Of a DNA stretch of 64,000 nt, positions 10,777 through 61,494 are shown in pieces. Where the stretch lies: the NCBI RefSeq assembly GCF_050320075.1, contig NZ_CP190018.1; one strand, given 5' to 3'. The notes beneath the pieces are model-generated. The model made no database searches and was not told the origin of the DNA. It was given only the letters and a program-made list of their open reading frames with translations. Source of the DNA: Escherichia coli. GTDB lineage: Bacteria; Pseudomonadota; Gammaproteobacteria; Enterobacterales; Enterobacteriaceae. Within the stretch, counting starts at the first letter, position 1, and every line of letters begins with the position of its first letter. Position numbers and translations under genes: made by a program.

Positions 10777-10808
10777 TACAGATTCCTCACTTTATTCGGA
10801 AAATATGT

Positions 10809-40657: not shown

Positions 40658-40950
40658 TATAAATGTCCCATTAAAGCTGGATAAATAAATTGACGGCGGC
40701 ATCGGTAATTTGAGATTCGTTATAATTAAAAACGAACACAGAAAAAATAAGTATAATTTTGGTGAATGTTTTTGACATGATTAAATCCCTTTACTTTATT
40801 TATTTCTGACATAATACGTTACTCCCTTTTATTATTAACGATCTGTTTCTCATTTTTCTTTAAACCTGCCTGTAACAGAATGTTAATAAGACATGATTGT
40901 TGTGGCAGGATCTGCAATAATTAACAATTATCCACTTCACAGAGAATGCT

Positions 40951-41622
40951 ATGCAGTACCCGATTAACGAGATGTTCCAGACCCTGCAAGGTGAGGGTTA
41001 CTTTACCGGCGTCCCCGCCATTTTTATTCGTTTACAGGGATGCCCGGTTGGCTGTGCCTGGTGCGACACCAAACACACCTGGGAAAAGCTTGAGGATCGG
41101 GAAGTCTCCCTTTTCAGCATTCTGGCGAAGACCAAAGAGAGTGATAAGTGGGGGGCGGCGAGCAGTGAAGACTTGCTGGCTGTCATTGGTCGCCAGGGAT
41201 ACACCGCGCGGCATGTGGTGATTACGGGTGGTGAGCCTTGCATTCATGATTTGCTGCCACTTACTGACCTGCTCGAAAAGAACGGTTTTAGCTGCCAGAT
41301 AGAAACCAGCGGTACTCATGAAGTGCGTTGTACGCCGAATACCTGGGTCACCGTGTCGCCAAAGCTAAATATGCGTGGTGGTTATGAAGTATTGTCGCAA
41401 GCCCTGGAGCGAGCTAACGAAATCAAACACCCAGTTGGACGCGTACGTGATATCGAAGCACTGGATGAATTGCTTGCGACGCTGACCGATGATAAACCGC
41501 GAGTCATTGCACTGCAGCCGATTAGCCAAAAGGATGATGCCACACGTTTGTGCATTGAAACCTGCATTGCGCGTAATTGGCGTTTGTCGATGCAAACACA
41601 TAAATATTTAAATATTGCCTGA
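40951..41622 (+). CDS. queE: 7-carboxy-7-deazaguanine synthase (radical SAM)
   Basis: 223-aa ORF with radical-SAM Cys motif (CPVGCAWCDTKHT); recognised as QueE (YgcF). Confidence 0.9.
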   Translation: MQYPINEMFQTLQGEGYFTGVPAIFIRLQGCPVGCAWCDTKHTWEKLEDREVSLFSILAKTKESDKWGAASSEDLLAVIGRQGYTARHVVITGGEPCIHDLLPLTDLLEKNGFSCQIETSGTHEVRCTPNTWVTVSPKLNMRGGYEVLSQALERANEIKHPVGRVRDIEALDELLATLTDDKPRVIALQPISQKDDATRLCIETCIARNWRLSMQTHKYLNIA

Positions 41623-41960: not shown

Positions 41961-43209
41961 GAGTTCCCCGCGCCAGCGGGGATAAACCGTTTGCTGAGTG
42001 TGCATACACACTTGAACATCAGAGTTCCCCGCGCCAGCGGGGATAAACCGCTATCAGTAACAACCTGGTAAATATCGGTTTTGAGTTCCCCGCGCCAGCG
42101 GGGATAAACCGTTTTCGGGGCCATAAATGGCGCTCATTTATGTGAGTTCCCCGCGCCAGCGGGGATAAACCGGGAAAATAAACGCGTTATTCCTTGATGG
42201 GTGCGAGTTCCCCGCGCCAGCGGGGATAAACCGAGCAACAGGTATTTCATATGGCCTGCCGTGCTGAGTTCCCCGCGCCAGCGGGGATAAACCGGCCAGC
42301 GGCGCTGAGTACGACGACCTGATTAAGAGTTCCCCGCGCCAGCGGGGATAAACCGTCAATACAACAGCAATGCTGGAGCTGGAAAAAGAGTTCCCCGCGC
42401 CAGCGGGGATAAACCGTGGTGGGATAGCTGCTCTGCCAGCGTGTCGCGGAGTTCCCCGCGCCAGCGGGGATAAACCGTGGGCGCAGCTCATGTATTCCAA
42501 TAAGGATATGAGTTCCCCGCGCCAGCGGGGATAAACCGAGATTCGCGCAATGTACGGTAAAGACAGCACCGAGTTCCCCGCGCCAGCGGGGATAAACCGC
42601 CATTCTTGTTGTCGTTCATCAAGCGCAGGGGGAGTTTCCCGCGCCAGCGGGGATAAACCGTTTGTTTTGATGATTTATCAGTATATGAATTGGAGTTCCC
42701 CGCGCCAGCGGGGATAAACCGATTTTTGCGCGGCCTGCATGAAACCAGTGGCAAAGTTCCCCGCGCCAGCGGGGATAAACCGGTACCGTTGAGCAATGGT
42801 GGGTAAATGGTGCTGAGTTCCCCGCGCCAGCGGGGATAAACCGATTTAGATACGGCACACAGGAATGCGCTGGATGAGTTCCCCGCGCCAGCGGGGATAA
42901 ACCGCATGGGAGTCCAGATTACAAATTCCAGAATGGGAGTTCCCCGCGCCAGCGGGGATAAACCGCGCCAGTCTGAGGTTTTCCGGTCATACATCGTGAG
43001 TTCCCCGCGCCAGCGGGGATAAACCGACCGTTGCTACACATATGATCAGGCATGTGCCGAGTTCCCCGCGCCAGCGGGGATAAACCGGACGATGAGACGC
43101 CCTGGTGTGCCGCGTTCGTGAGTTCCCCGCGCCAGCGGGGATAAACCGCGTTTAGCTCCGCAATGTTGGATATCACTGATGAGTTCCCCGCACCAGCGGG
43201 AATAAACCA
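41961..43209 (+). CRISPR. type I-E CRISPR array, 21 repeats and 20 spacers
   Basis: 29-bp repeat GAGTTCCCCGCGCCAGCGGGGATAAACCG recurring with exact 61-bp periodicity (41961 + 61n); all spacers 32 bp and unique; last repeat (43181-43209) degenerate. Confidence 0.98.
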
Positions 43210-43846: not shown

Positions 43847-45325
43847 TTACGCATTCGACCAGCTCTGGATCGAATCCGCATTCCCCAATTCCCCATGCAT
43901 CACTTCATACGATTTTTTCAGGATTACATCAGTATGTTTGGTTAACTCCTTGAAAATGCCTTTATTCATCGCGTTGTAGCGTTTGGCGTTGCTCTCAACA
44001 GGCATAAAGATATCTTTCACGCGAACCATTTTGTCGACAGCCGTTGCGTAATCCGGGTATAGCCCCAGACCTACCGCCGTATTAATCGCTGCCCCCAGGC
44101 TTGCACAACCATTAATGGCGTTACGGCGTGCCGGAAGGTTGAACACGTCGGCAAAAATCTGCATAAACAGATCGCTGTTCGAACCGCCGCCAGTAATGAT
44201 CACATGCTTTGCAAAGTGATTCATTTCATTACACATATTGTCGTAATTGTTCTTCAGCGTCAGCGCCACGCTTTCCAGTATCGAACGATATATCCATGCG
44301 TAATCCATGCTGGAATCAAAGCCAATCATAATCCCGCGTTTGTACGGTTCCCACGGATTGGTCAGCCAGTCCAGCACCGTCATCAGACCATTACAGCCTG
44401 GCGGCACACAAGACGCTTTTTTGTTGAGCAAATCTTCCGGTGAAAGATCCTGTGCTTTGGCATCCTGAATTAACGACTCGCCTAACATGTCGCGTAGCCA
44501 GCTCACCGTCCACATGCCTTTGCGAATACCGTAACCTTCATACAGCAAGGTTTGCGGAATAGAAGACATAATCGGCCAGTACGCTACCGGATCTTTCGGT
44601 AGTAATTTGCCGTTCATCATCAACGCGATGTAAGTGCCAAGAGAAATTACCGCAGTTTCATCATCCAGTAACCCGGCTCCCAGTGCTTCTACCGGTTTAT
44701 CACTGGTGGTACAAACAACCGGCAGCCCAGCCGGGAAATGTGTCGCCAGCGCGGCTTGAGGAGTGATATGCCCAAGAACAGTGCCCGGCATTTGCACATC
44801 AAACAGCATATGACGGGGGATATTAAACTTCTCCATGACTGCGGCATCTTCACTCCATGCCCAGGTCTTATAATCCACCGGCCACTGACCAAAATAGTTG
44901 GCGATATTGTCTTTAAACTCGCCGGTTAAGCGATGCGTCAGATAACCCGAAAAAGAGGTGACATATGCCACGTCAGGATTCGTATGTTCGTAAGGGCGTG
45001 TAACGCGTGCATCCTGCCAGCTAATCAACGGCGCAGCTGGCGTGCCATCGGCTTTCAATAACGCACGGCAGCAACGGATGGATCCCAGACCAATACCGAC
45101 AATATCTTCTTTATTTCCGGCAAACTGACTCATCAAATCGTGACCGGCAAAGCATAATGATGCCCATAAATCGTCGTCAGGATGTTCTGCGGTATCGGCA
45201 TCTGGCGTGTGCATCGGCTGCAATAAGCCTTTGCCTTCGCAAACCACATTACCTTCCAGATCGTACATCACCACTTTTGTGCTCTGACTTCCACCATCAA
45301 TCCCTATGATGTATTTTTTCGACAT
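43847..45325 (-). CDS. ygcE: FGGY-family carbohydrate kinase
   Basis: 492-aa ORF with FGGY kinase N- and C-terminal domain signatures. Confidence 0.85.
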   Translation of the reverse strand: MSKKYIIGIDGGSQSTKVVMYDLEGNVVCEGKGLLQPMHTPDADTAEHPDDDLWASLCFAGHDLMSQFAGNKEDIVGIGLGSIRCCRALLKADGTPAAPLISWQDARVTRPYEHTNPDVAYVTSFSGYLTHRLTGEFKDNIANYFGQWPVDYKTWAWSEDAAVMEKFNIPRHMLFDVQMPGTVLGHITPQAALATHFPAGLPVVCTTSDKPVEALGAGLLDDETAVISLGTYIALMMNGKLLPKDPVAYWPIMSSIPQTLLYEGYGIRKGMWTVSWLRDMLGESLIQDAKAQDLSPEDLLNKKASCVPPGCNGLMTVLDWLTNPWEPYKRGIMIGFDSSMDYAWIYRSILESVALTLKNNYDNMCNEMNHFAKHVIITGGGSNSDLFMQIFADVFNLPARRNAINGCASLGAAINTAVGLGLYPDYATAVDKMVRVKDIFMPVESNAKRYNAMNKGIFKELTKHTDVILKKSYEVMHGELGNADSIQSWSNA

Positions 45326-45351
45326 GATTTTTCTCCTGTAATTTTCTGGAC

Positions 45352-46629
45352 TTACTTGCTGCTAGCCATAGCAGGGGCGCTATCAGCAGTACGAATTTTT
45401 TGGAACAGCAAAAAGGTAAAGACGATCACCATGGCAAGCGCCGCCATGCCCATCAGCCACATATTGCGGTAGGCTTCTGCAGCGGGCAGGGTGTCTTGCC
45501 AGTAGCCGATAATCGGGTAAACGAAGACATCCGGCAGGAATCCAATCACCGAACAAATACCTACCGTGGTGCCCATAATGTAAGACGGTGTTCTCGCTTC
45601 GCCAGGGCAGGCCCAGTACAGCCCGCGTGAGGCGTAACAGGTGAATCCCAGCAGTAAAATCAGGCCAATCCCCATCGCGACCGATTGCGGGTTAGAGTTC
45701 GTGACGAGCAGGGCAGTTAACGCCAGCAAGCCGAGTACGGAAAGGATTTGGATCACGCGGGTAGGGGATTTCACTTTGCTGTAGGTGGTGATAATGCCGC
45801 CAAGTGGGCCGCACAGCGCGCGGAAGATTTTGTTGATCACAATCCCCATGTAGCTCGCCGCCACCAGCGACATGCCGTACATTTCGGTCAGATAGTTGGT
45901 GGAGTAACTCAGAATGGCGTAGATGGTGAAGACGCCAAAAATCACCATGCTGCAATACCAGGTGGTGCTGATGCGCAAAACGGCCAGGATGTCGCTAAGC
46001 TGGAATGACTGTTTTTCTTCGTTATTGGCACTGCGCAGATTGTTGTTATCGCTAACAAAAAACCAGCACAGAATCCCCAACAAGATGTAAACCACACTAT
46101 AGATGATGATGACCGTTTTCAGACTGGCGCTGTCATCCGGAGCGAAGCGAGAAAAGACCCACATGGTAAACACCGCCAGCGACATTACACCGACGCCGCG
46201 CAGCCCTTCCATCCAGCCCATAATTTTCCCTTGCTCGCTATGATCGCCCAGCAATGAGGCGGCTTTAATCGACACCGACCACAGCATTAAAATAGTGGTT
46301 ATCGCAAAGGCGACCTGAATACAGAGCATTACCCACAGCGGTGGATATGTTGCCATTAACAGACCCAGTAATCCGGTAATGATCATCGCGGAAGTAATCA
46401 TTTTGCGGTGTGAAAATTTATCGGCAATAACGCCGCTGGGGGCATAAAGAATAATGGCCGCAATACCAAATGTACTCATTATTAAACCTATCTCGGTATT
46501 GCTGAATCCCATAAATTTCGCTATGGGAATTTGATAAATATAACGTAAATAAGCCAGGTCGAAACTAACGCCGCCGCTAAAACTAATTATCGCGAGGGTT
46601 ATCCAACGGCGATATGAGTTGTGTTGCAT
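45352..46629 (-). CDS. yqcE: MFS transporter
   Basis: 425-aa polytopic membrane ORF, 26 bp upstream of ygcE on the same strand. Confidence 0.85.
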   Translation of the reverse strand: MQHNSYRRWITLAIISFSGGVSFDLAYLRYIYQIPIAKFMGFSNTEIGLIMSTFGIAAIILYAPSGVIADKFSHRKMITSAMIITGLLGLLMATYPPLWVMLCIQVAFAITTILMLWSVSIKAASLLGDHSEQGKIMGWMEGLRGVGVMSLAVFTMWVFSRFAPDDSASLKTVIIIYSVVYILLGILCWFFVSDNNNLRSANNEEKQSFQLSDILAVLRISTTWYCSMVIFGVFTIYAILSYSTNYLTEMYGMSLVAASYMGIVINKIFRALCGPLGGIITTYSKVKSPTRVIQILSVLGLLALTALLVTNSNPQSVAMGIGLILLLGFTCYASRGLYWACPGEARTPSYIMGTTVGICSVIGFLPDVFVYPIIGYWQDTLPAAEAYRNMWLMGMAALAMVIVFTFLLFQKIRTADSAPAMASSK

Positions 46630-46653
46630 ATCGTATTCCCATTTGTAATAGAC

Positions 46654-46701
46654 AAAAAAAAGAGAAAAGTAAGCCGCCCTTTCAGGTGGATTACTTTTCT
46701 C
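46654..46701 (-). terminator. intrinsic-terminator-like hairpin in the yqcE leader
   Basis: On the minus strand GAGAAAAGTAA-18 nt loop-TTACTTTTCTC followed by U8, ending 25 nt upstream of the yqcE ATG. Confidence 0.6.
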
Positions 46702-46876
46702 AGGTCTCTAGTAATTGCAATAAGAAATAACATGGAAAGCAGTGGTGTTGTGTGAGAGTAATCACGCTTCTGCTTTTTAAAATTATTTGACAATTCGAAT
46801 ATCACACTGTGATTACGATCACATTAGCGATTATGCCCTTATGATAAAAATTATCTCCAGTTACCAGAGATAATGA

Positions 46877-46923
46877 GAAAGGTAACTTCCCTCTCGCGGG
46901 GGAAGTTACCTTTCTTTTTTTTT
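46877..46923 (+). terminator. intrinsic-terminator-like hairpin in the ygcW leader
   Basis: Perfect 15-bp stem GAAAGGTAACTTCCC / GGGAAGTTACCTTTC with 8-nt loop, followed by T9; ends 25 nt upstream of the ygcW ATG. Confidence 0.65.
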
Positions 46924-46947
46924 GCCTTACGGAAATTGGAGCTAACT

Positions 46948-47733
46948 ATGTCAATCGAATCTCTCAATGCGTTCTCAATGGATTTTTTCTCCCTGAAAGG
47001 TAAAACCGCAATTGTTACCGGCGGGAATAGCGGTTTAGGCCAGGCATTTGCCATGGCGCTGGCCAAAGCAGGCGCAAATATCTTTATTCCAAGCTTCGTT
47101 AAAGATAACGGCGAAACAAAGGAAATGATTGAAAAACAGGGTGTTGAGGTGGACTTCATGCAGGTGGATATCACCGCAGAAGGCGCGCCGCAGAAGATAA
47201 TCGCCGCCTGTTGCGAACGTTTCGGTACCGTCGATATTCTGATTAACAATGCCGGTATTTGTAAGCTGAATAAGGTGCTGAACTTCGGTCGTGCCGACTG
47301 GGACCCGATGATTGATGTGAACCTGACCGCCGCATTCGAGTTAAGCTATGAAGCTGCAAAAATTATGATCCCGCAGAAAAGCGGTAAAATCATTAATATC
47401 TGTTCATTATTCTCTTACTTAGGTGGACAATGGTCACCTGCATATTCTGCCACTAAACATGCTCTTGCCGGATTCACCAAAGCTTACTGTGATGAACTAG
47501 GTCAATATAATATTCAGGTAAATGGTATTGCCCCTGGCTATTATGCAACAGATATTACGCTGGCGACACGCAGTAATCCAGAAACCAATCAGCGCGTTCT
47601 TGATCATATTCCGGCAAACCGTTGGGGCGATACTCAGGATTTAATGGGCGCAGCCGTATTCCTCGCAAGTCCGGCATCGAATTATGTCAACGGACATTTA
47701 TTAGTGGTTGATGGTGGTTATTTAGTGCGCTAA
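46948..47733 (+). CDS. ygcW: short-chain dehydrogenase/reductase (KduD / gluconate-5-dehydrogenase-like)
   Basis: ORF 46873..47733; start placed at MSIESLNAF giving 261 aa; SDR motifs TGGNSGLG and YxxxK. Confidence 0.85.
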   Translation: MSIESLNAFSMDFFSLKGKTAIVTGGNSGLGQAFAMALAKAGANIFIPSFVKDNGETKEMIEKQGVEVDFMQVDITAEGAPQKIIAACCERFGTVDILINNAGICKLNKVLNFGRADWDPMIDVNLTAAFELSYEAAKIMIPQKSGKIINICSLFSYLGGQWSPAYSATKHALAGFTKAYCDELGQYNIQVNGIAPGYYATDITLATRSNPETNQRVLDHIPANRWGDTQDLMGAAVFLASPASNYVNGHLLVVDGGYLVR

Positions 47734-47802
47734 TCCATAACGGTGGTTTCTGTTTTCTCTTATTAATGATTATTCCATTTTTATTATCAGGAAGGAATTA
47801 CT

Positions 47803-49257
47803 ATGTCTTTATCTCGCGCAGCGATTGTCGACCAGCTAAAGGAAATTGTTGGTGCAGATCGCGTAATTACCGATGAAACAGTATTAAAGAAGAACAGTAT
47901 TGACCGTTTTCGCAAATTTCCGGATATTCATGGCATTTATACTTTGCCGATTCCGGCAGCGGTCGTAAAACTCGGTTCCACAGAACAAGTATCCCGTGTG
48001 CTGAATTTTATGAATGCGCACAAAATTAACGGTGTGCCGCGTACCGGTGCTTCCGCTACCGAAGGTGGGCTGGAAACCGTTGTGGAAAACTCGGTGGTGC
48101 TCGACGGCTCTGCCATGAATCAAATCATTAATATTGATATTGAGAATATGCAGGCCACGGCGCAATGCGGAGTTCCGCTGGAAGTGCTGGAAAACGCGTT
48201 GCGTGAAAAAGGTTACACCACGGGGCATTCTCCGCAGTCAAAGCCGCTGGCGCAGATGGGCGGCCTGGTAGCAACCCGCAGTATCGGGCAGTTCTCCACA
48301 CTCTACGGCGCAATCGAAGATATGGTCGTTGGTCTGGAAGCAGTATTGGCTGATGGCACCGTAACACGCATTAAAAACGTACCACGCCGCGCGGCAGGCC
48401 CGGACATTCGTCACATCATCATCGGCAACGAAGGTGCATTGTGCTATATCACTGAAGTAACTGTGAAAATCTTTAAGTTCACCCCGGAAAACAACCTCTT
48501 CTACGGCTATATCCTGGAAGACATGAAAACCGGCTTCAACATCCTGCGTGAAATCATGGTGGAAGGGTATCGTCCGTCGATCGCTCGTTTGTATGACGCT
48601 GAAGATGGCACCCAACACTTCACCCATTTTGCTGACGGAAAATGCGTGCTGATCTTTATGGCTGAAGGTAACCCTCGCATTGCGAAGGCGACGGGCGAAG
48701 GGATTGCTGAAATCGTGGCACGTTACCCGCAATGCCAGCGAGTGGACAGCAAGCTGATCGAAACCTGGTTTAACAACCTGAACTGGGGACCGGATAAAGT
48801 AGCTGCCGAACGTGTGCAGATCCTCAAAACCGGCAACATGGGCTTTACCACCGAAGTGTCCGGCTGCTGGAGCTGCATTCACGAAATCTACGAAAGCGTT
48901 ATTAACCGTATTCGTACCGAGTTCCCGCACGCCGACGACATCACCATGCTGGGCGGTCACTCCTCTCACAGCTACCAGAACGGCACCAACATGTACTTCG
49001 TTTACGACTACAACGTTGTTGACTGTAAGCCGGAAGAGGAAATCGACAAGTACCACAATCCGCTCAACAAAATCATCTGCGAAGAAACCATTCGCCTCGG
49101 TGGTTCGATGGTGCACCACCACGGCATTGGTAAACATCGCGTTCACTGGAGCAAGCTGGAACACGGCAGCGCGTGGACGTTGCTGGAAGGTCTGAAAAAG
49201 CAGTTCGATCCTAACGGCATTATGAATACGGGTACTATCTATCCGATTGAAAAATAA
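47803..49257 (+). CDS. ygcU: FAD-linked oxidase (GlcD / alkyl-DHAP-synthase-like)
   Basis: 484-aa ORF with FAD-binding PCMH-type domain. Confidence 0.85.
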   Translation: MSLSRAAIVDQLKEIVGADRVITDETVLKKNSIDRFRKFPDIHGIYTLPIPAAVVKLGSTEQVSRVLNFMNAHKINGVPRTGASATEGGLETVVENSVVLDGSAMNQIINIDIENMQATAQCGVPLEVLENALREKGYTTGHSPQSKPLAQMGGLVATRSIGQFSTLYGAIEDMVVGLEAVLADGTVTRIKNVPRRAAGPDIRHIIIGNEGALCYITEVTVKIFKFTPENNLFYGYILEDMKTGFNILREIMVEGYRPSIARLYDAEDGTQHFTHFADGKCVLIFMAEGNPRIAKATGEGIAEIVARYPQCQRVDSKLIETWFNNLNWGPDKVAAERVQILKTGNMGFTTEVSGCWSCIHEIYESVINRIRTEFPHADDITMLGGHSSHSYQNGTNMYFVYDYNVVDCKPEEEIDKYHNPLNKIICEETIRLGGSMVHHHGIGKHRVHWSKLEHGSAWTLLEGLKKQFDPNGIMNTGTIYPIEK

Positions 49258-49298
49258 TGTGTCAGGCAGCGTTCCGCGATGACGGGGCGTTGCCTTTT

Positions 49299-49328
49299 CG
49301 GCTTCTCAGGCGAGAAGCCGTTCTTATT
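49299..49328 (+). terminator. hairpin between ygcU and ygcS (weak terminator or attenuator)
   Basis: CGGCTTCTC-aggc-GAGAAGCCG followed by TTCTTATT. Confidence 0.45.
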
Positions 49329-49350
49329 ACCGGACAATGAAGGGATAAAG

Positions 49351-50688
49351 ATGAACACTTCACCGGTGCGAATGGATGATTTACCACTTAACCGTTTTCA
49401 CTGCCGCATTGCTGCGCTCACTTTCGGCGCACACCTGACCGACGGTTATGTCCTCGGCGTCATTGGTTACGCCATTATTCAGCTTACGCCCGCCATGCAA
49501 CTGACGCCGTTTATGGCGGGAATGATTGGCGGCTCAGCACTCCTTGGTTTGTTTCTTGGCAGCCTGGTTCTGGGCTGGATCTCCGACCATATTGGGCGAC
49601 AAAAAATCTTCACCTTCAGCTTTTTGCTGATTACGCTTGCTTCGTTTTTACAATTTTTTGCCACCACGCCAGAGCATCTTATTGGACTGCGCATTTTGAT
49701 TGGCATTGGTCTGGGAGGCGATTACTCAGTCGGTCACACCTTGCTGGCTGAATTTTCCCCGCGCCGCCACCGCGGTATTTTGCTGGGCGCGTTCAGCGTG
49801 GTGTGGACTGTAGGCTATGTGCTGGCAAGTATTGCCGGACATCACTTTATTAGCGAAAGCCCGGAGGCCTGGCGCTGGCTGCTGGCATCGGCAGCTCTGC
49901 CCGCATTGTTGATTACGTTATTACGCTGGGGAACGCCAGAATCGCCACGCTGGCTACTGCGCCAGGGGCGTTTTGCAGAAGCTCACGCTATCGTGCATCG
50001 CTATTTTGGTCCCCATGTTTTACTGGGCGATGAAGTGGCAACGGCGACCCATAAACACATCAAAACCTTGTTCTCTTCGCGCTACTGGCGGCGCACAGCG
50101 TTTAACAGCGTCTTCTTTGTCTGCCTCGTAATCCCATGGTTTGTGATTTATACCTGGCTGCCAACTATCGCCCAGACTATTGGTCTGGAAGATGCGTTGA
50201 CCGCTAGCCTGATGCTTAATGCGTTGTTAATTGTGGGTGCGCTGCTGGGATTAGTTCTGACGCACCTGCTGGCACATCGCAAATTTTTGCTGGGAAGTTT
50301 TTTGCTGCTGGCGGCAACGCTGGTAGTGATGGCTTGTTTGCCTTCCGGCAGTTCATTAACGCTGCTGCTTTTTGTTCTCTTCAGCACCACCATTTCGGCA
50401 GTCAGTAATCTGGTGGGCATTTTGCCTGCGGAAAGTTTTCCTACTGACATTCGCTCGCTGGGCGTCGGTTTTGCCACCGCCATGAGTCGGTTGGGCGCGG
50501 CGGTAAGTACTGGCCTGCTGCCGTGGGTGCTGGCGCAGTGGGGAATGCAAGTCACCTTATTGCTCCTGGCGGCAGTGTTGTTGGTTGGTTTTGTCGTGAC
50601 CTGGCTATGGGCACCAGAAACCAAAGCACTCCCGCTGGTGGCGGCGGGAAATGTTGGAGGTGCGAATGAACATTCTGTTAGCGTTTAA
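49351..50688 (+). CDS. ygcS: MFS sugar-porter-type transporter
   Basis: ORF 49279..50688; start placed at MNTSPVRMDDL giving 445 aa; 12-TM profile. Confidence 0.85.
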   Translation: MNTSPVRMDDLPLNRFHCRIAALTFGAHLTDGYVLGVIGYAIIQLTPAMQLTPFMAGMIGGSALLGLFLGSLVLGWISDHIGRQKIFTFSFLLITLASFLQFFATTPEHLIGLRILIGIGLGGDYSVGHTLLAEFSPRRHRGILLGAFSVVWTVGYVLASIAGHHFISESPEAWRWLLASAALPALLITLLRWGTPESPRWLLRQGRFAEAHAIVHRYFGPHVLLGDEVATATHKHIKTLFSSRYWRRTAFNSVFFVCLVIPWFVIYTWLPTIAQTIGLEDALTASLMLNALLIVGALLGLVLTHLLAHRKFLLGSFLLLAATLVVMACLPSGSSLTLLLFVLFSTTISAVSNLVGILPAESFPTDIRSLGVGFATAMSRLGAAVSTGLLPWVLAQWGMQVTLLLLAAVLLVGFVVTWLWAPETKALPLVAAGNVGGANEHSVSV

Positions 50689-51445
50689 AGCCGAACCGGA
50701 TGCCGGAATGCTGGCGGAAAAAGAGTGGCAGGCGGCGGCTCAGGGTAATAGCGGACCGGATGTTTCGCTTCTGCGAAGTTTGCTCGGTGCTGATGAACAG
50801 GCTGCCGCCGCGCTGCTGTTGGCGCAGAGAAAAAACGGTACGTCGATGTCTTTAACCGCGTTGAGCATGGGGGATGAACGGGCGTTGCACTGGCTGCGCT
50901 ATCTTATGGCTCTTGGGTTTGAGGAAGCTGTATTGCTGGAGACGGCGGCAGATCTGCGCTTTGCGCCGGAATTTGTCGCTCGCCATATTGCCGAATGGCA
51001 GTACCAGAATCCGCTGGAGCTGATAATTACTGGCTGCCAAAGCAGCGAAGGGCAGAATGGGCAAACGCCATTTTTGCTGGCGGAAATGCTGGGCTGGCCC
51101 TGCTTCACCCAGGTGGAGCGTTTTACTCTCGACGCGCCGTTTATCACCCTTGAACAGCGTACTGAAAACGGGCTGCGCTGTTGCCGGGTTCGCTTGCCTG
51201 CGGTGATTGCCGTGCGTCAGTGCGGTGAAGTGGCCTTGCCAGTACCGGGAATGCGTCAGCGAATGGCGGTGGGGAAAGCAGCAATTATCCGTAAAACTGT
51301 TGCTGCCGAATCGCCAGCGATGCAGTGTCTGCAACTGGCAAGAGCAGAGCAACAACGCGGAGCGACGCTGATTGATGGGCAAACGGTAGCAGAAAAAGCG
51401 CAAAAGCTATGGCAGGACTATTTACGCCAAAGGATGCAGCCATGA
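50666..51445 (+). CDS. ygcR: electron-transfer flavoprotein beta-subunit-like (FixA-like)
   Basis: ORF 50651..51445; start placed at MNILLAFK giving 259 aa; overlaps ygcS 3' end. Confidence 0.8.
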   Translation: MNILLAFKAEPDAGMLAEKEWQAAAQGNSGPDVSLLRSLLGADEQAAAALLLAQRKNGTSMSLTALSMGDERALHWLRYLMALGFEEAVLLETAADLRFAPEFVARHIAEWQYQNPLELIITGCQSSEGQNGQTPFLLAEMLGWPCFTQVERFTLDAPFITLEQRTENGLRCCRVRLPAVIAVRQCGEVALPVPGMRQRMAVGKAAIIRKTVAAESPAMQCLQLARAEQQRGATLIDGQTVAEKAQKLWQDYLRQRMQP

Positions 51446-52302
51446 ATATCGCAATTGTGACAATAAATCAGGAGAATGCCGCAACAGCGAGCTGGCAGGC
51501 GGCGCAGGATTTCAGCGGTTGTACCCTGGCGCACTGGAAGATTGAACCTCAGCCCGCTGTGGCGGAACAGGTGCTGGATGCGCTGGTGGAACAGTGGCAG
51601 CGAACGCCAGCGGACGTTGTTCTCTTTCCGCCGGGAACGTTTGGCGATGAACTGTCGACCCGGCTGGCCTGGCGTTTACATGGTGCAAGCATCTGCCAGG
51701 TGACTTCGTTAGATATTCCAACCGTAAGCGTGCGCAAATCCCACTGGGGAAATGCGCTAACGGCGACGCTGCAAACAGAAAAACGCCCGCTATGCCTTTC
51801 GCTGGCACGTCAGGCGGGAGCAGATAAAAACGCCACGTTGCCCTCTGGTATGCAGCAACTGAACATTGTCCCAGGTGCGCTTCCCGACTGGCTGGTTAGC
51901 ATAGAAAACCTGAAAAATGTTACCCGCGACCCATTAGCTGAGGCCAGACGGGTGCTGGTGGTGGGGCAGGGCGGAGAGGCAGATAACCAGGAAATCGCTA
52001 TGCTGGCAGAAAAGCTGGGAGCCGAAGTGGGCTACAGTCGGGCACGAGTGATGAACGGTGGCGTTGATGCCGAAAAAGTGATTGGTATTTCTGGACATCT
52101 GCTGGCACCTGAGGTGTGTATTGTTGTTGGCGCTTCCGGCGCAGCAGCGTTAATGGCGGGCGTACGCAATAGCAAGTTTGTGGTGGCGATTAATCATGAC
52201 GCCAGCGCAGCGGTATTTTCACAGGCAGATGTTGGCGTGGTTGATGACTGGAAAGTGGTGCTGGAGGCACTGGTGACAAACATTCACGCAGAATGCCAAT
52301 AA
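51442..52302 (+). CDS. ygcQ: electron-transfer flavoprotein alpha-subunit-like (FixB-like)
   Basis: ORF 51409..52302; start placed at MNIAIVTINQ giving 286 aa; ATGA overlap with ygcR. Confidence 0.8.
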   Translation: MNIAIVTINQENAATASWQAAQDFSGCTLAHWKIEPQPAVAEQVLDALVEQWQRTPADVVLFPPGTFGDELSTRLAWRLHGASICQVTSLDIPTVSVRKSHWGNALTATLQTEKRPLCLSLARQAGADKNATLPSGMQQLNIVPGALPDWLVSIENLKNVTRDPLAEARRVLVVGQGGEADNQEIAMLAEKLGAEVGYSRARVMNGGVDAEKVIGISGHLLAPEVCIVVGASGAAALMAGVRNSKFVVAINHDASAAVFSQADVGVVDDWKVVLEALVTNIHAECQ

Positions 52303-52350
52303 CGTGCAGCCGGATGATCCTGCCTACGGTTTCGGGCTGGGGACTTGTAA

Positions 52351-53124
<774 letters not shown>

Positions 53125-53228
53125 ATCAGCATACTTGTCCTTAGCCTTCTGCAGTGACAGCTGGTAGTACAGCGTGCTTCTGGCCAGCCCTGCAGCCTTT
53201 AACAGGTCAGACTGGCAGTGTCCGCACC

Positions 53229-53750
53229 TCAGGCTCCGGATGACTTTCGTTTTTTCTCCAGCTCCTGGCGCTTTTTTTCCAGGAGATGCTCCTGCATGGC
53301 TTTCAGATATGCATTTTCTGCGCGAAGATAACGTAGCTCATTCTTCATCTCTTCCGGCGTCATGTTTGCCTCGTTTTCATGGGTATCATCAGAACGGGTC
53401 ATGCTTTTCTCCTTCCTGCGCCTGATAAAGGCCTCATTACCAGATTTGCGGTAGCCTTTTATCCAGTTTTTAACCGTGTTGTGGCTGGGAATGTTAAACC
53501 GGGCAGCTACCCGGGGTAGAGACTCAGAATGCCCGAGAGCATAAAGAACCACGCAAAGTTTATCTTCAGGAGAATAGCTACGCTTGTGTCTGCAATCCAG
53601 TGCCCGAGGACCGTGAAGAAGAAAAAGATTAATCCAGTGTGAGAGGCTGGTGTGAGAAAGTTGAAAGAGTTTTGCCGTAGAAATGATGCCTGCATGACCA
53701 GCCAGGTAATGATTTACAGCGGCAAGTTTTACTTCAAATGAATGTTTCAT
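53229..53750 (-). CDS. IS3-family transposase OrfA (HTH DNA-binding, leucine-zipper region)
   Basis: ORF 53229..53759; likely ATG start at 53748-53750 (MKHSFEVKLAAVNHY) giving 173 aa. Confidence 0.85.
   Translation of the reverse strand: MKHSFEVKLAAVNHYLAGHAGIISTAKLFQLSHTSLSHWINLFLLHGPRALDCRHKRSYSPEDKLCVVLYALGHSESLPRVAARFNIPSHNTVKNWIKGYRKSGNEAFIRRRKEKSMTRSDDTHENEANMTPEEMKNELRYLRAENAYLKAMQEHLLEKKRQELEKKRKSSGA
53271..53278 (-). other. candidate -1 programmed ribosomal frameshift site (A AAA AAG)
   Basis: Minus-strand A7G run about 45 nt upstream of the orfA stop, at the orfA/orfB overlap. Confidence 0.6.
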
Positions 53751-53801
53751 AAACTGCACCTTCAGATGTCAGATTATGTCCAACATTTGGGGTGCAGTTC
53801 A

Positions 53802-53819
53802 TCAAGCGTCGCATCAGGC
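53802..53819. repeat. right half of the REP split by the IS insertion (TCAA plus arm)
   Basis: TCAA + GCGTCGCATCAGGC, complementary to the left half at 52351-52365. Confidence 0.7.
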
Positions 53820-53884
53820 GCTGAATGTCGGATGTGGCGTGCAGCCTACAAATCACACAAATTCAACTCGTTACGAGTATCCCG

Positions 53885-54460
53885 TCAAAGCAATTTTTTC
53901 GCTAACGTCCAGACCCCGGTATTCGTGGTGGAAAGCGCCACAACACCCGCGTTAATCGCATTACGCGCATCTTCTTCATCGCACACCAGCCCGCCGGCAA
54001 TCAGCGGTTGGCGGATTTTCTCCGTCACCCAGCCCAGCACTTTAGGCATACAGCCTGGCAGGATCTCAATACAATCCGGATTCGATTGCGCAACTTGCTT
54101 ATCAATGTTGTGAAACGAAATCGAATCAACAATAAACAGGCGATGAATACAGAAAAAACCTTCCGCTCTTGCCGCTTTCAGCATCGATGCTTTCGTGCTG
54201 ATAATGCCGTCCGCCTCGGTCACCAGTTTCAGAAACTGAATCACCACTTCTTTGTTCGATGCGCCTTCCAGCAAATCAACATGAATAAAGGCATATTTTC
54301 CGGCGTTTTTAATCTTTTTAACGATATTACTGATGGTGCAGATATTGCCGTACAACACTGAAATAAACTGGCATTCAGAATCGATTGCCAGTTGCAGGCT
54401 GGCATTATCTTTAACGGCAGCAATCACCGGATTCTGGCGGAGCAGGTGTAAGAGGGGCAT
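53885..54460 (-). CDS. ygcP: GlpP-like glycerol-3-phosphate-responsive antiterminator family protein
   Basis: 191-aa ORF recognised as YgcP (G3P-antiterminator family). Confidence 0.8.
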   Translation of the reverse strand: MPLLHLLRQNPVIAAVKDNASLQLAIDSECQFISVLYGNICTISNIVKKIKNAGKYAFIHVDLLEGASNKEVVIQFLKLVTEADGIISTKASMLKAARAEGFFCIHRLFIVDSISFHNIDKQVAQSNPDCIEILPGCMPKVLGWVTEKIRQPLIAGGLVCDEEDARNAINAGVVALSTTNTGVWTLAKKLL

Positions 54461-54476
54461 AAATTATCCTTATTAT

Positions 54477-54737
54477 TTATCCAAAGCGGTAGGTGATGCC
54501 GAATCCGGAAGGCGGATAGCGCCACTGTTGTAGTGTTGATTCGTCGCACAGCAAACGGCAGGTGCCACACTCCAGGCAGCCGCGATAATCAACGCGTAAG
54601 TCACCTTCCGGTGTGAGCGAAAAAAGACCAGCCGGACAAGCGTTAATCAACCGTTGTACCGTCTGGCGCTCAACGGAGTCAGCCGGAACAATGTGCGGCG
54701 CATCGGCAACGCGCCAGAGATTACGGGCTACAGACAT
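54477..54737 (-). CDS. ygcO: FixX-like ferredoxin
   Basis: ORF 54477..54773; start placed at MSVARNLW giving 86 aa; Cys cluster CLECGTCRLLC. Confidence 0.8.
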   Translation of the reverse strand: MSVARNLWRVADAPHIVPADSVERQTVQRLINACPAGLFSLTPEGDLRVDYRGCLECGTCRLLCDESTLQQWRYPPSGFGITYRFG

Positions 54738-55999
54738 CGCAGACTCCTGATAACATCGCCCGCCAGATGCCACAGGCCGTGACGACGTAAATGACGCCAG
54801 AATAACTGGCGCAGCGGTGGAACAGGTTTATCACCCTGATCCCATAAATCGCGGGAAATATCCTGCATTAACGCAGGCCACGCACGGTACCAGCCAGGGC
54901 GTTGCAAAAGCGCCGGAACATGCTGATAACGTTGTAGAACATCCCATAGCAGGCTGCGCTCGACGTTGTGATGATAAAGCGGAAACAGATTTTGCGGCTC
55001 GCGGTGCTGGCAGGCGCTTATCAGCGTTTGTGCCGCCGCCTGCGCGCCAGTTAGCGCCATATCCATGCCGCGCACGGAAATTCCGGTATTGACGCAACTG
55101 CGCAACGCATCGCCCAGCAGCAGCCAGCCGTTACCGGCGTATTGCACCGGCATACTGTGCAAGCCACCTTCTGGCACCAGATGCGCACCATACTCCAGTG
55201 ATTCCGTGTTTTTGATAAGCGGGCGCACTGCCGGATGCGTTTTAAAGCGAGCCAGCAGCTCGCTTGCCGGAACACGACTTTGCGTAAGGGAAGAGAGCGG
55301 GCAAACAATCCCTAACGAGAGCGTTTGTTGATTAGTATAAAGAAATGCGCCGCCGGGTAAGTCATCACAGATCCCGCCGCTGAACAGCAACGCTGCGTCT
55401 TCGTTATTCTCCAGATGAAAACGTTCTTCAATAGCGGATGTTTCCAGCGACAGCACTTCTTTGATCCCCAACGCCATCGCTTCGCCAGCAGGACGAGTCA
55501 CTAACCCGTGACGTTCAGCCAGGACGCTGTTGGCACCTTCTGCCAGCACCACATAACGGGCGCGGAGAATATCGTCACCACAAATGACACCACACACCCT
55601 GCCGTTTTCTTCATACAGCGCATCCACCGTCGCACCGGGGATGCATTCGACACCTTCTTTTTCGGCTTCGGCAACCAGCCACGGATCGAACCGTGCACGT
55701 AATACACTCCAGGATTCACCGCCGGGCTGTAAGCTGGAAAACGTCGTTGCGCCATCCGGCGTTAGCAGAGAAAGGCTTTCGTGAGTGATGCGTCGTTCAA
55801 GAGGCGCGGTCAGATGAAATTGCGGGAGGAGTTCCGCGAGCGCATGGGTGTATAAACGCCCGCCGGAAAGATTTTTGCTGCCGGGGATTTCAGCGCGTTC
55901 CAGTAACAGAACGGACAAACCTGCCCGCGCGCAGCGTAAAGCACAAGCGGTACCTGCTATACCGGCACCAATAATAATAATGTCGCAGTTGTCTTCCAT
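54728..55999 (-). CDS. ygcN: FixC-like FAD-dependent oxidoreductase (ETF-quinone oxidoreductase family)
   Basis: ORF 54728..56029; start placed at MEDNCDIIIIGAGIAG giving 423 aa; FAD-binding GxGxxG. Confidence 0.82.
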   Translation of the reverse strand: MEDNCDIIIIGAGIAGTACALRCARAGLSVLLLERAEIPGSKNLSGGRLYTHALAELLPQFHLTAPLERRITHESLSLLTPDGATTFSSLQPGGESWSVLRARFDPWLVAEAEKEGVECIPGATVDALYEENGRVCGVICGDDILRARYVVLAEGANSVLAERHGLVTRPAGEAMALGIKEVLSLETSAIEERFHLENNEDAALLFSGGICDDLPGGAFLYTNQQTLSLGIVCPLSSLTQSRVPASELLARFKTHPAVRPLIKNTESLEYGAHLVPEGGLHSMPVQYAGNGWLLLGDALRSCVNTGISVRGMDMALTGAQAAAQTLISACQHREPQNLFPLYHHNVERSLLWDVLQRYQHVPALLQRPGWYRAWPALMQDISRDLWDQGDKPVPPLRQLFWRHLRRHGLWHLAGDVIRSLRCL

Positions 56000-56076
56000 G
56001 TCATGCCCCAGATATCCAGAACACAACACCCTAACATGGCGTTACTTAAGGGAAATTGACCGCCGACACACTCTTA

Positions 56077-56442
56077 TCATTCGCCGCGATAGATACAGCC
56101 TGCAGTACAGGTTTCTTTTACCATCACCGCACTTAACAGCGGCACAACGGGTTTAACCTGATCCCAAATCCATTTTGCTAAAACTTCGCTGGTTGGGTTT
56201 TCCAGACCTGGAATATCATTGAGATAATGGTGATCGAGGCGCTCGTAGGTTGGCTTAAACGCCGCTTTCAGTTCAGCGAAATCGATAATCCAGCCCGTAT
56301 GCGGATCGACTTCCCCGGTAATTTCCAGTCGCACCATAAAGGAATGCCCGTGCAGGCGACCACATTTATGCCCTTCCGGGACGTGTGGTAAGCGGTGAGC
56401 GGCTTCGAAGGTGAAATCTTTAAATAACGTGGTGGACATCAT
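56077..56442 (-). CDS. queD: 6-carboxy-5,6,7,8-tetrahydropterin synthase (queuosine biosynthesis)
   Basis: ORF 56077..56526; start placed at [10 protein letters not shown] giving 121 aa; PTPS His motifs (CGRLHGHSF). Confidence 0.88.
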
Positions 56443-61341: not shown

Positions 61342-61494
61342 ATGCTGACAAAATATGCCCTTGTGGCAATCATCGTACTGTGTTGTACAGTACTGGGATT
61401 CACGCTGATGGTAGGCGACTCGTTGTGTGAGTTGAGTATCAGAGAACGTGGTATGGAGTTTAAGGCAGTTCTCGCTTACGAATCGAAGAAGTAG
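61342..61494 (+). CDS. Hok-family type I toxin (50 aa, HokE/HokX-like)
   Basis: ATG 61342 preceded by GGGAGG; product [50 protein letters not shown] has one TM helix and the conserved Hok C-terminal region; below the ORF-track size cutoff. Confidence 0.8.

Follow-up and report, generated by a model that had tools for sequence, protein, structure and literature searches.

In Bacillus subtilis, the antiterminator protein GlpP acts together with glycerol-3-phosphate (G3P) to override the leader terminators of glpD, glpFK and glpTQ (PMC9604022, PMC10573289). We analysed a 64-kb stretch of the Escherichia coli chromosome (hereafter, the window) that is a 100% match to strain YZLc1-3 across the ygc region and carries the ygc cluster, ten genes arranged as yqcE–ygcE, ygcWUSRQ and ygcNOP. 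From its sequence, we think it somewhat more probable than otherwise that this cluster is a conserved, substrate-inducible catabolic regulon under the control of the cAMP receptor protein (CRP) and of YgcP, a relative of GlpP. The two systems are alike in having a regulator of the PF04309 family, in placing a leader terminator directly upstream of the regulated genes and in combining this with catabolite control (by CcpA in B. subtilis, by CRP in ygc). They differ in their targets, which in E. coli are yqcE–ygcE and ygcWUSRQ and not glpF, glpK, glpD or glpT, and no cluster protein reaches the cut-off of an NCBIfam glp equivalog. The ygc leaders also have a stem that is fixed across phyla (RGUUACY/RGUAACU), occur as two divergent copies in one promoter region, and are found in a Gram-negative host with predicted class-II CRP promoters.

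Other described systems share parts of this arrangement. The caiTABCDE–fixABCX system of E. coli is CRP-dependent and also encodes FixC/FixX-like and electron-transfer flavoprotein (ETF)-like proteins beside a catabolic operon; in its BCCT transporter (CaiT) and its quaternary-amine substrate it resembles the ygc loci of other phyla, for which such a substrate is likely. The ygc cluster, by contrast, has no CoA ligase, CoA transferase, acyl-CoA dehydrogenase or hydratase, its YgcR and YgcQ score only 28–63 bits against FixA/FixB models, and putative antitermination takes the place of CaiF. The eukaryotic ether-lipid enzyme AGPS (alkyl-dihydroxyacetone phosphate (DHAP) synthase, also ADPS) is the best match to YgcU in sequence and fold and has the same catalytic Arg, Tyr and His-His-His residues; its substrate is a C1-substituted DHAP, the product expected if a terminal diol were acted on by a short-chain dehydrogenase/reductase (SDR) and a kinase. 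Unlike AGPS, YgcU is bacterial, catabolic by context and ETF-linked in many genomes. LctBCD of Acetobacterium woodii (PDB 7QH2) has in common with ygc a VAO-type FAD enzyme encoded beside EtfB and EtfA, whereas YgcU carries HHHG(I/V)G in place of the xEHGVG seen in neighbours of GlcD/LctD type, matches LctD (1e-21) more weakly than AGPS and occurs in many loci in which ETF is dispensable. In the Brucella erythritol pathway, the FGGY kinase EryA acts before the flavoprotein EryB, which uses the phosphorylated product, an order similar to that of ygc; unlike ygc, however, this pathway has a flavoprotein that is GlpD-type and not VAO/AGPS-type, a repressor (EryD) and no betaine-type transporters.

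The ygc cluster itself is long known and annotated, and in K-12 MG1655 all ten genes are likewise present and still carry the label 'putative'. Our literature search returned no study that assigns a function to any ygc gene, its matches being SELEX lists, screens and acronym collisions; the 'YgcO' of PMC13104625 is a typing error for YcgO. Neither Rfam, nor the RefSeq annotation, nor the literature search contained the leader pair described below, its conservation alongside YgcP across phyla, the resemblance of YgcU to AGPS, or the link to betaine-type transporters and MttB-family genes.

Both divergent operons begin with the same leader RNA

A terminator scan found a 19-bp hairpin followed by a U9 run just upstream of ygcW, and a like element on the opposite strand before yqcE. 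Both divergent operons, yqcE–ygcE and ygcWUSRQ, therefore begin with the same type of leader. We built a covariance model (R1) from 66 leader copies; over the entire window it returned only the ygcW leader (46850–46923, + strand; 78.4 bits, E = 3.5e-15) and the yqcE leader (46654–46726, − strand; 77.1 bits, E = 7e-15), the latter also found by motif scan, and it returned the same two in K-12, where the leaders lie at MG1655 2,900,298–2,900,371 and 2,900,496–2,900,567. Neither R1 nor inspection of the sequence revealed a leader before ygcNOP or elsewhere in the window. In the ygcW leader, the arms AGUUACC (46859–46865) and GGUAACU (46881–46887) enclose the loop AGAGAUAAUGAGAAA, and a 19-bp terminator at 46875–46916 with a U9 run at 46915–46923 ends 25 nt before the ATG. 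The yqcE leader has the arms AAUUACU (46716–46710) and AGUAAU (46695–46690) and a terminator (46654–46702) with a U8 run at 46654–46661 that also ends 25 nt before the start codon. The consensus of this element of about 75 nt is RGUUACY-AGAG-N4–6-GAGAAAAGUAAC-(stem-loop)-GCUUUUCUC-U7–9, with about 25 nt to the start codon.

The alignment supports two helices. The antiterminator is a 7-bp helix (AGUUACY/RGUAACU) in which 91% of cells are paired; pair 12–42 is GC in 42 copies and AU in 18, and pair 17–37 is UA in 46 and CG in 12. The terminator has 88% of its cells paired, with both sides changed in nine pairs. Column 37 covaries with column 17 in the antiterminator and with column 72 in the terminator, as expected of mutually exclusive helices that share it. 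The switch from G–C to A–U at pair 12–42 recurs in several lineages; the C–G variant is found only in enterobacterial ygcW leaders. Predicted fold energies for the ygcW leader are −34.2 kcal/mol for the terminator (z = −7.0) and −6.7 for the antiterminator alone, and those for the yqcE leader are −22.3 and −1.4 kcal/mol, respectively. A weak antiterminator set against a strong terminator implies termination by default and the need for a stabilizing factor.

The region is conserved but absent from existing catalogues. The yqcE–ygcW intergenic region is present at 95% identity or more in 5,046 E. coli genomes, and RefSeq annotates nothing in it. The 4,227 covariance models of Rfam 15 gave no relevant match at E ≤ 1 in the 40–60-kb part of the window, and none at E ≤ 0.1 in four related loci (L050, L064, L069 and L072).

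Two CRP-consensus sites lie between the leaders. Site 1 (TGTGAgagtaaTCACg, 46751–46766), for the yqcE promoter, is centred 43.5 bp upstream of the leader arm; site 2 (TGTGAttacgaTCACA, 46808–46823), a 10/10 match for the ygcW promoter, is centred 44.5 bp upstream of the AGUUACC at 46859. This distance of 43.5–44.5 bp is kept in essentially all Enterobacterales and Vibrionaceae loci, however long the spacer between the two leaders (105–316 bp). At class-II promoters the CRP site is centred at −41.5, and the spacing thus predicts a transcription start 2–3 nt before the arm (at about 46857 for ygcW and 46717 for yqcE). An earlier computational survey, PhyloScan, had ranked the yqcE–ygcW intergenic region among its top CRP predictions (PMC1794230). 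The initial annotation had made its reading of the cluster as a single pathway depend on co-regulation, and this is supported by the identical leader elements and the CRP sites before both divergent operons. In Budvicia, the Fix and ETF genes sit behind leaders, which ties the redox genes to the regulon.

The leaders are likely YgcP-dependent switches

YgcP (191 amino acids; ygcP, 53885–54460, − strand) matches the Pfam family PF04309 (G3P_antiterm; E = 1.6e-62) over model positions 1–173 of 173, and its PDB matches, 3KTS (100 bits) and 1VKF, are GlpP-type proteins. We fetched 80 genomic loci around YgcP relatives and mapped the ten cluster proteins onto each. The leader is present in 52 of 81 YgcP-anchored loci, in one to three copies each, which comprises nearly all loci that keep the ygcW/ygcU/ygcE region, a region absent from three enteric loci that are truncated. 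No leader was found by the scan in those YgcP-anchored loci that have plain glpP only. One leader usually precedes each cluster operon, and two Firmicute loci have a third copy before ygcU. Across the fetched loci and a metagenome scan that started from the motif, ygcP was found on every sufficiently long contig with a leader. Twelve further metagenome matches to a short pattern, on contigs without ygc genes, had no support from the covariance model and were dismissed as chance.

The glycerol-type loci offer a parallel. The plain glpP loci contain 12 hairpins that are fused to terminators and differ in their stems but have a GAGA...GAGA loop; shuffled sequences gave 1.1. These loci resemble ygc in having such a hairpin overlap a terminator. 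The loop therefore looks like the recognition element of the GlpP family, with the ygc class as a subclass that has a fixed stem. Rfam 15 contains a model for neither of them. The hosts of these hairpins are ordinary glpP loci of Lachnospiraceae and relatives, and most hairpins lie right after glpP (L061, 4737; L064, 3067; L068, 10613; L069, 3378 and 6762; L074, 13468; L075, 10608; L078, 10598; L079, 10615). YgcP and plain GlpP proteins have 41 near-invariant positions in common, and at the 90% level no specificity-determining residues separate the two groups.

From these patterns, and by analogy with B. subtilis, we consider it likely that the leaders are YgcP-dependent antitermination switches. 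They could instead work without YgcP, as metabolite riboswitches, constitutive attenuators or insulators, with YgcP acting elsewhere or inactive in E. coli. A ligand pocket is conceivable within the conserved 15-nt loop, and the E. coli ygcP stands in a separate operon behind the Fix genes. The same loop, however, occurs in glycerol-operon leaders, for which the requirement for GlpP is proven in B. subtilis; a leader without ygcP was never seen on contigs with enough flanking sequence; ygcP is among the genes under the strongest purifying selection in the cluster; and the hairpin is very small, with no further conserved structure. We therefore regard leaders that act independently of YgcP as highly improbable.

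Leaders were also seen before other operons in lake and soda-lake metagenome contigs (L125, 6224–6291; L161, 381–449; L089, 5562–5629; L124, 8465–8533; L146, 1417–1485). There they precede an MttB-family methyltransferase gene, a PanB-like gene and a betaine-type ABC transporter, or an ABC transporter alone. The presence of leaders before operons other than ygc implies that the YgcP-type regulon is wider than the ygc genes.

A four-gene core travels across phyla

The full E. coli layout is found in Escherichia, Citrobacter, Klebsiella spallanzanii, Raoultella, Enterobacter, Yokenella, Lelliottia, Mixta, Pluralibacter and others, and a rearranged layout in Serratia, Rahnella, Budvicia and Limnobaculum. 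The set that travels together across phyla is limited to ygcP, ygcW, ygcE and ygcU. This core is present in Vibrio, Photobacterium, Halobacillus, Virgibacillus, Thalassobacillus, Sporomusa, Geosporobacter and Syntrophomonadaceae, and identity to the E. coli proteins across phyla is 63–79% for YgcW and 59–72% for YgcU. ETF genes accompany the core in enterics and anaerobes and are missing from the loci of aerobic Bacillaceae, Pantoea and S. proteamaculans; FixCX-like genes were found in Enterobacterales only. Among the mapped loci, the cluster has no conserved aldolase, isomerase or dehydratase of the kind that sugar routes use.

Selection on the genes follows the same division. Ratios of nonsynonymous to synonymous substitution (dN/dS) within Escherichia and Citrobacter are 0.01–0.27 over all ten genes, which indicates purifying selection. 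The values are about 0.01–0.04 for ygcW (0.01–0.03), ygcE (0.02–0.03), ygcP (0.01–0.04) and ygcU (0.01–0.03), compared with 0.06–0.27 for ygcR (0.11–0.25), ygcQ (0.13–0.21), ygcO and ygcN. All ten genes thus appear functional, with the redox module under looser constraint, and decay of the cluster by pseudogenization is ruled out by a dN/dS of at most 0.27 in every gene. The ETF-like (50666–52302) and FixCX-like (54477–55999) genes have a dN/dS 5–10 times that of the core genes, and their products are 42–78% identical between enterobacterial genera, compared with 88–97% for the core proteins. At least 80% of the ygc query is covered in 5,045 of 5,426 complete E. coli genomes; with its synteny across genera and the purifying selection on its genes, the cluster goes well beyond a chance association.

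These comparisons bear on how the cluster had been described. The view of its genes as a single functional unit, which combines uptake, a kinase, a dehydrogenase, a flavoenzyme, ETF/FixCX and a GlpP-like antiterminator, is supported. ETF-coupled oxidation was taken to be the core of the pathway, and this does not fit a module that is missing from the three groups of loci named above and that evolves 5–10 times faster; ETF/FixCX looks like an accessory redox module. The term 'island' is also misplaced, since the cluster comes close to being part of the E. coli core genome and its base composition (G+C 0.42–0.55) is ordinary, which rules out an acquired island on compositional grounds.

YgcU resembles alkyl-DHAP synthase

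YgcU (484 amino acids; ygcU, 47803–49257, + strand) is a VAO-type flavoenzyme with the domains PF01565 and PF02913. Its best sequence matches in the PDB are AGPS 4BBY (5e-40) and 2UUU, ahead of GlcD (1e-25) and LctD. R262, Y398 and H438–440 of YgcU align with R419, Y578 and H615–617 of AGPS in guinea-pig numbering (R352 and Y508 in Dictyostelium), and the deposited AGPS mutants 4BCA (Y578F) and 4BC7 (R419H) confirm the catalytic positions in the alignment; the roles of these residues have been described (PMC3509576). The Arg/Tyr/HHH set is kept in all 53 of 53 YgcU orthologues. When the AlphaFold model of YgcU was compared using Foldseek, the top 35 matches were all AGPS, with a TM-score of about 0.80 (4BBY and 5AE2). 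Against the GlcD model TIGR00387, YgcU scored 144 bits (cut-off 568), and the xEHG(I/V)G motif is not present: the corresponding residues are HHHG(I/V)G in YgcU but SEHGVG or TEHGVG in the GlcD-like paralogues encoded alongside it (L041 and L044). By sequence and modelled fold, the closest enzyme to YgcU is thus alkyl-DHAP synthase, with GlcD and LctD further away, and the designation 'GlcD-like oxidase' that it had been given is better replaced. YgcU is not an AGPS proper, however, as it lacks the N-terminal extension (its residues at about 50–60 align with AGPS 138–215, approximately, and it has 484 amino acids compared with 584–658). It probably also lacks the elements that gate the fatty chain in AGPS (those of PMC3509576).

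A second flavoenzyme, of GlcD type, is encoded beside the ETF genes in four non-enterobacterial ygc loci (L041, 2348–3826; L044, 14904–16442; L046, 369–1820; L049, 168–1955). The xEHGVG motif was confirmed in those of L041 and L044, and L041 also has a second ETF pair.

The remaining enzymes match families without reaching any named function. YgcW (261 amino acids; 46948–47733, + strand) is an SDR dehydrogenase of the KduD/gluconate-5-dehydrogenase kind; its score for the KduD equivalog NF005390 was 349 bits (cut-off 369), and it is near gluconate 5-dehydrogenases. These nearest families yield terminal hydroxy-ketones, as KduD and gluconate 5-dehydrogenase oxidize the penultimate hydroxyl of a terminal diol. 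YgcE (492 amino acids; 43847–45325, − strand, the second gene of the yqcE–ygcE operon in the RefSeq annotation and the list of open reading frames (ORFs)) is an FGGY-family kinase that reached no cut-off among the equivalogs XylB, LsrK, GlpK, GntK, AraB, FucK and RhaB. XylB was best in NCBIfam (142 bits, cut-off 380), followed by LsrK (139), both far below cut-off, and the closest PDB entry is the AI-2 kinase 5YA0.

The redox proteins are more divergent. YgcR (259 amino acids; 50666–51445, + strand) is ETF beta-like and very divergent, with 28–43 bits to ETF-beta models; YgcQ (286 amino acids; 51442–52302, + strand) is a divergent ETF alpha/FixB-like protein with 63–76 bits to EtfA/FixB models. 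YgcN (423 amino acids; 54728–55999, − strand), a FixC-like FAD oxidoreductase, scored 376 bits against PRK10015 and 361 bits against FixC PRK10157, both below cut-off, and YgcO (86 amino acids; 54477–54737, − strand), a FixX-like ferredoxin, scored 84 bits against a cut-off of 166 for FixX NF011993. Falling short of the equivalog cut-offs marks YgcN and YgcO as paralogues and not FixCX itself.

These assignments also fit a catabolic route for a sugar acid or polyol, in which MFS uptake is followed by phosphorylation by YgcE and oxidation by a GlcD-like YgcU, with electrons passing to YgcRQ and YgcNO as in LctD/LctBC. After AGPS, the relatives that come closest to YgcU, both by sequence and by fold, are LctD and D-lactate dehydrogenases; in enterics and in three anaerobe loci (L057, L060 and L076), the genes right behind ygcU are those for ETF; and YgcS scores as a sugar-porter-like MFS protein. 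We find such a route doubtful nonetheless. The AGPS residues are invariant among the orthologues and xEHGxG is missing; many loci keep YgcW, YgcE and YgcU without ETF and FixCX; no sugar-route aldolase, isomerase or dehydratase is conserved; and betaine-type transporters outside enterics, as well as a leader in common with MttB genes, are left unaccounted for.

An alternative glycerol/G3P route is another candidate: YgcP would sense G3P, YgcE would be a glycerol kinase paralogue, and YgcU with ETF and FixCX would be an anaerobic G3P dehydrogenase that makes DHAP. The 41 near-invariant positions and the lack of group-specific residues in YgcP and plain GlpP are in keeping with it, as are the glycerol kinases among the closest solved relatives of YgcE, and the G3P/DHAP pair would go well with an AGPS-like pocket for a DHAP moiety. 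YgcE, however, scored 102 bits against GlpK, for which the cut-off is 590, no glpF-like facilitator is conserved in the cluster, and this route leaves the strongly conserved YgcW and the BCCT, Opu and MttB genes without a role. E. coli already has GlpK, GlpD and GlpABC, which counts further against it, and we judge this route quite improbable.

Transporters and neighbours hint at a substrate class

A betaine-type transporter adjoins ygc in 14 of 16 non-enterobacterial loci, nine of them BCCT and five Opu/ProVWX-type ABC transporters; there were none in plain glpP loci. Several of these transporters have a leader copy of their own (L047, L054, L055, L124 and L146). In L060 and L115, a non-pyrrolysine MttB-family methyltransferase gene is co-transcribed after etfA, and in metagenome loci L125, L089 and L161 a leader precedes an MttB-family gene, followed in L125 by a betaine-type ABC transporter; L089 and L060 are different parts of one metagenome contig, so that the MttB cases are not five independent ones. 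In three anaerobe loci, the ETF genes are separated from the betaine-type ABC transporter by a gene of the proline-racemase/hydroxyproline-epimerase family (L057, 16333–17331; L060, about 10004–11038; L076, 6723–7808).

The BCCT proteins of six loci (L043, L044, L046, L047, L050 and L054) all have the BCCT transmembrane signature in the form W-T-x-F-Y-W-x-N-W-(M/L)-A-W-A-P. The exact canonical BCCT Trp motif was not matched in them; the alignment shows WTTFYWSNWMAWAP, with one Trp replaced by Asn. By comparison with BetP, this Asn would stand at the position of one of the three Trp of betaine carriers. By that analogy, the variant hints at a substrate that is cationic but is not glycine betaine. 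A literature search for BCCT together with FGGY returned no papers.

The E. coli cluster encodes two MFS transporters. YqcE (425 amino acids; 45352–46629, − strand, RefSeq annotation) gave weak matches to the D-galactonate (ACS) and PgtP (OPA) subfamilies. YgcS (49279–50688, + strand) has 469 amino acids in the PGAP annotation; the K-12 start is 72 nt downstream, giving 445 amino acids. In NCBIfam, YgcS scored 183 bits for AAHS, 143 for sugar porters and 137 for the organic-cation-transporter model TIGR00898. A G+C-rich hairpin (CGGCUUCUCAGGCGAGAAGCCG, 49299–49320) lies inside the 469-amino-acid ygcS ORF and upstream of the 445-amino-acid K-12 start. The two annotations disagree over the start codon, and the hairpin may be an intercistronic stem-loop that separates ygcU from ygcS.

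Taken together, the transporters, the MttB genes and the cation-family score of YgcS point to a quaternary-ammonium compound rather than a common sugar acid or polyol. The substrate had been described as a carbohydrate or polyol, a label that sits poorly with betaine-type transporters in 14 of 16 non-enterobacterial loci and with MttB genes that are co-transcribed or leader-bearing. We set glycerophosphocholine aside as a substrate, as a simple phosphodiesterase route for it already exists.

Gene content, flanks and insertion sequence

All ten proteins have family-level profile matches (FGGY, two MFS, SDR, VAO-type FAD, EtfB and EtfA, FixC-like, FixX-like and PF04309), and none reaches an NCBIfam cut-off for a named function. 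In the loci of other genomes, several genes near the cluster proved to be unrelated housekeeping genes, CwlD and ApbC among them. The ten-gene cluster is present with the families that the initial annotation had given, as judged from RefSeq annotation, ORFs and profiles, and is syntenic in many Enterobacterales genera. Its earlier end coordinate, 56029, is the GTG start of the longest ygcN ORF; ygcN is the first gene of ygcNOP and lies 77 bp downstream of queD.

The cluster had been placed between the CRISPR array and cysJIH. The array is indeed on one side and cysJIH on the other, but queD (56077–56439), which this description omitted, stands between ygcN and cysJ and adjoins ygcN in all enterobacterial loci. 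On the other flank, a type I-E CRISPR array (repeat GAGTTCCCCGCGCCAGCGGGGATAAACCG, 41961–43209) lies upstream of ygcE, together with queE (40951–41622). The two queuosine-biosynthesis genes thus bracket the array and the ygc cluster, which suggests that an ancestral queD/queE neighbourhood received the intervening stretch of approximately 14.5 kb by insertion. Beyond cysH are a hok/gef toxin gene (about 61342–61494) and cas3 (from about 61689), and a frameshifted small ORF at the position of yqcG is annotated at 40671–40812.

Between ygcQ and ygcP lies IS1397 (52370–53801, − strand), an insertion sequence (IS) of the IS3 family of 1,432 bp that RefSeq annotates as 'IS3-like element IS1397 family transposase'. 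It is flanked by TCAA target duplications at 52366–52369 and 53802–53805, and alignment with the empty site of K-12 identified its target as the loop of a repetitive extragenic palindrome (REP), GCCTGATAAGACGCG-TCAA-GCGTCGCATCAGGC. Specificity for REPs is the known target preference of IS1397 (PMC1525189). In length, family, REP-loop site and 4-bp duplication, this is an ordinary copy. IS1397 occupies this site in 290 of 5,426 complete E. coli genomes and is absent from it in K-12; copies covering at least 80% of the element are found in 1,707 genomes. An IS had been reported to interrupt the cluster here; the element is where it was said to be, but it breaks no gene or promoter, because the 3′ ends of ygcQ and ygcP converge there. 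IS1397 is a bystander, a harmless strain polymorphism outside the ygc system.

Discussion

We propose that the core of the system consists of a regulator (ygcP), an SDR (ygcW), an FGGY kinase (ygcE) and an AGPS-like enzyme (ygcU), to which transporters would have been added, as well as ETF/FixCX in enterics and anaerobes (FixCX-like genes in Enterobacterales only). As predicted from the promoter region, cAMP–CRP would activate the two divergent class-II promoters. Each transcript would begin about 2 nt before the 7-nt arm and by default fold into the terminator, stopping 25 nt before the start codon. On the model of B. subtilis GlpP and G3P, YgcP bound to a phosphorylated effector would bind the weak hairpin, which has a 14–15-nt loop with AGAGA...GAGAAA and a 3′ arm that is also the 5′ half of the terminator stem. 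RNA polymerase would then read into yqcE–ygcE and ygcWUSRQ, while ygcNOP, which lacks a leader, would supply the regulator independently.

The chemistry can be sketched as follows. A small compound with a terminal 1,2-diol, X-CH2-CHOH-CH2OH, would be taken up; YgcW would oxidize the diol to a hydroxy-ketone; and YgcE would phosphorylate this to a DHAP-like keto-phosphate (X-CH2-CO-CH2OP), probably also the effector. YgcU would then apply AGPS-type flavin chemistry at C1 to give DHAP and X, or else oxidize the compound, and YgcRQ with YgcNO would pass electrons to quinone or keep the FAD oxidized. The substrate is probably a small hydroxylated compound, either quaternary-ammonium or glycerol-like, and X probably is, or carries, a quaternary ammonium group, at least outside enterics.

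We hold the sequence from SDR to kinase to AGPS-like enzyme as a tentative outline, possible but with more speaking for its being wrong than right. A bolder version, in which YgcU is a bacterial catabolic counterpart of AGPS that uses covalent chemistry at flavin N5 to expel the C1 substituent of a C1-substituted DHAP and release DHAP, we think unlikely. In that version, the expelled substituent could be an ether- or N-linked quaternary ammonium compound, such as the head group of deacylated betaine lipids, or trimethylamine. Our confidence in the overall picture of a CRP- and YgcP-controlled regulon is a judgement of its own and not the product of the confidences that we attach to the antitermination switches, to the enzyme sequence and to the release of DHAP.

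Several points weigh against this proposal. The pairing of YgcP with the leader RNA is a prediction from co-occurrence and the B. subtilis analogy, and that co-occurrence is partly built in, as most loci were fetched through YgcP. The covariation of columns 17–37 and 37–72 probably comes from one enterobacterial lineage and a single event. With no residues to separate YgcP from GlpP, the effector could be G3P itself. The model of YgcU is moderately confident (pLDDT 77, and below 50 in the HHH loop). AGPS swaps the C1 substituent of acyl-DHAP through a flavin adduct without net redox change (PMC3509576), which fits a dedicated ETF/FixCX module poorly, and in the four loci with a GlcD-like dehydrogenase, that enzyme may be the real ETF partner. 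E. coli has MFS carriers and not BCCT or Opu transporters, and its substrate may differ.

What was a list of annotations becomes a set of testable claims: two RNA switches with coordinates, a pair of regulator and RNA, two class-II CRP promoters and the reclassification of YgcU as AGPS-like. The substrate class is narrowed to diol-bearing or quaternary-ammonium compounds rather than common sugars. Deleting both leader terminators should make these 'cryptic' operons constitutive, which offers a practical route to the substrate. The GAGA-loop hairpin that the leaders share with glycerol operons may provide a general recognition rule for the GlpP family. In the bolder version of the proposal, a new three-enzyme route would break C–O or C–N bonds under the control of a new, phylum-spanning class of GlpP-family antiterminator elements, and E. 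coli would thereby gain its first switch of the GlpP antitermination type. If the AGPS-like chemistry holds, the enzymes would offer a new way for bacteria of the gut and of saline habitats to degrade glycerol-linked or quaternary-amine compounds.

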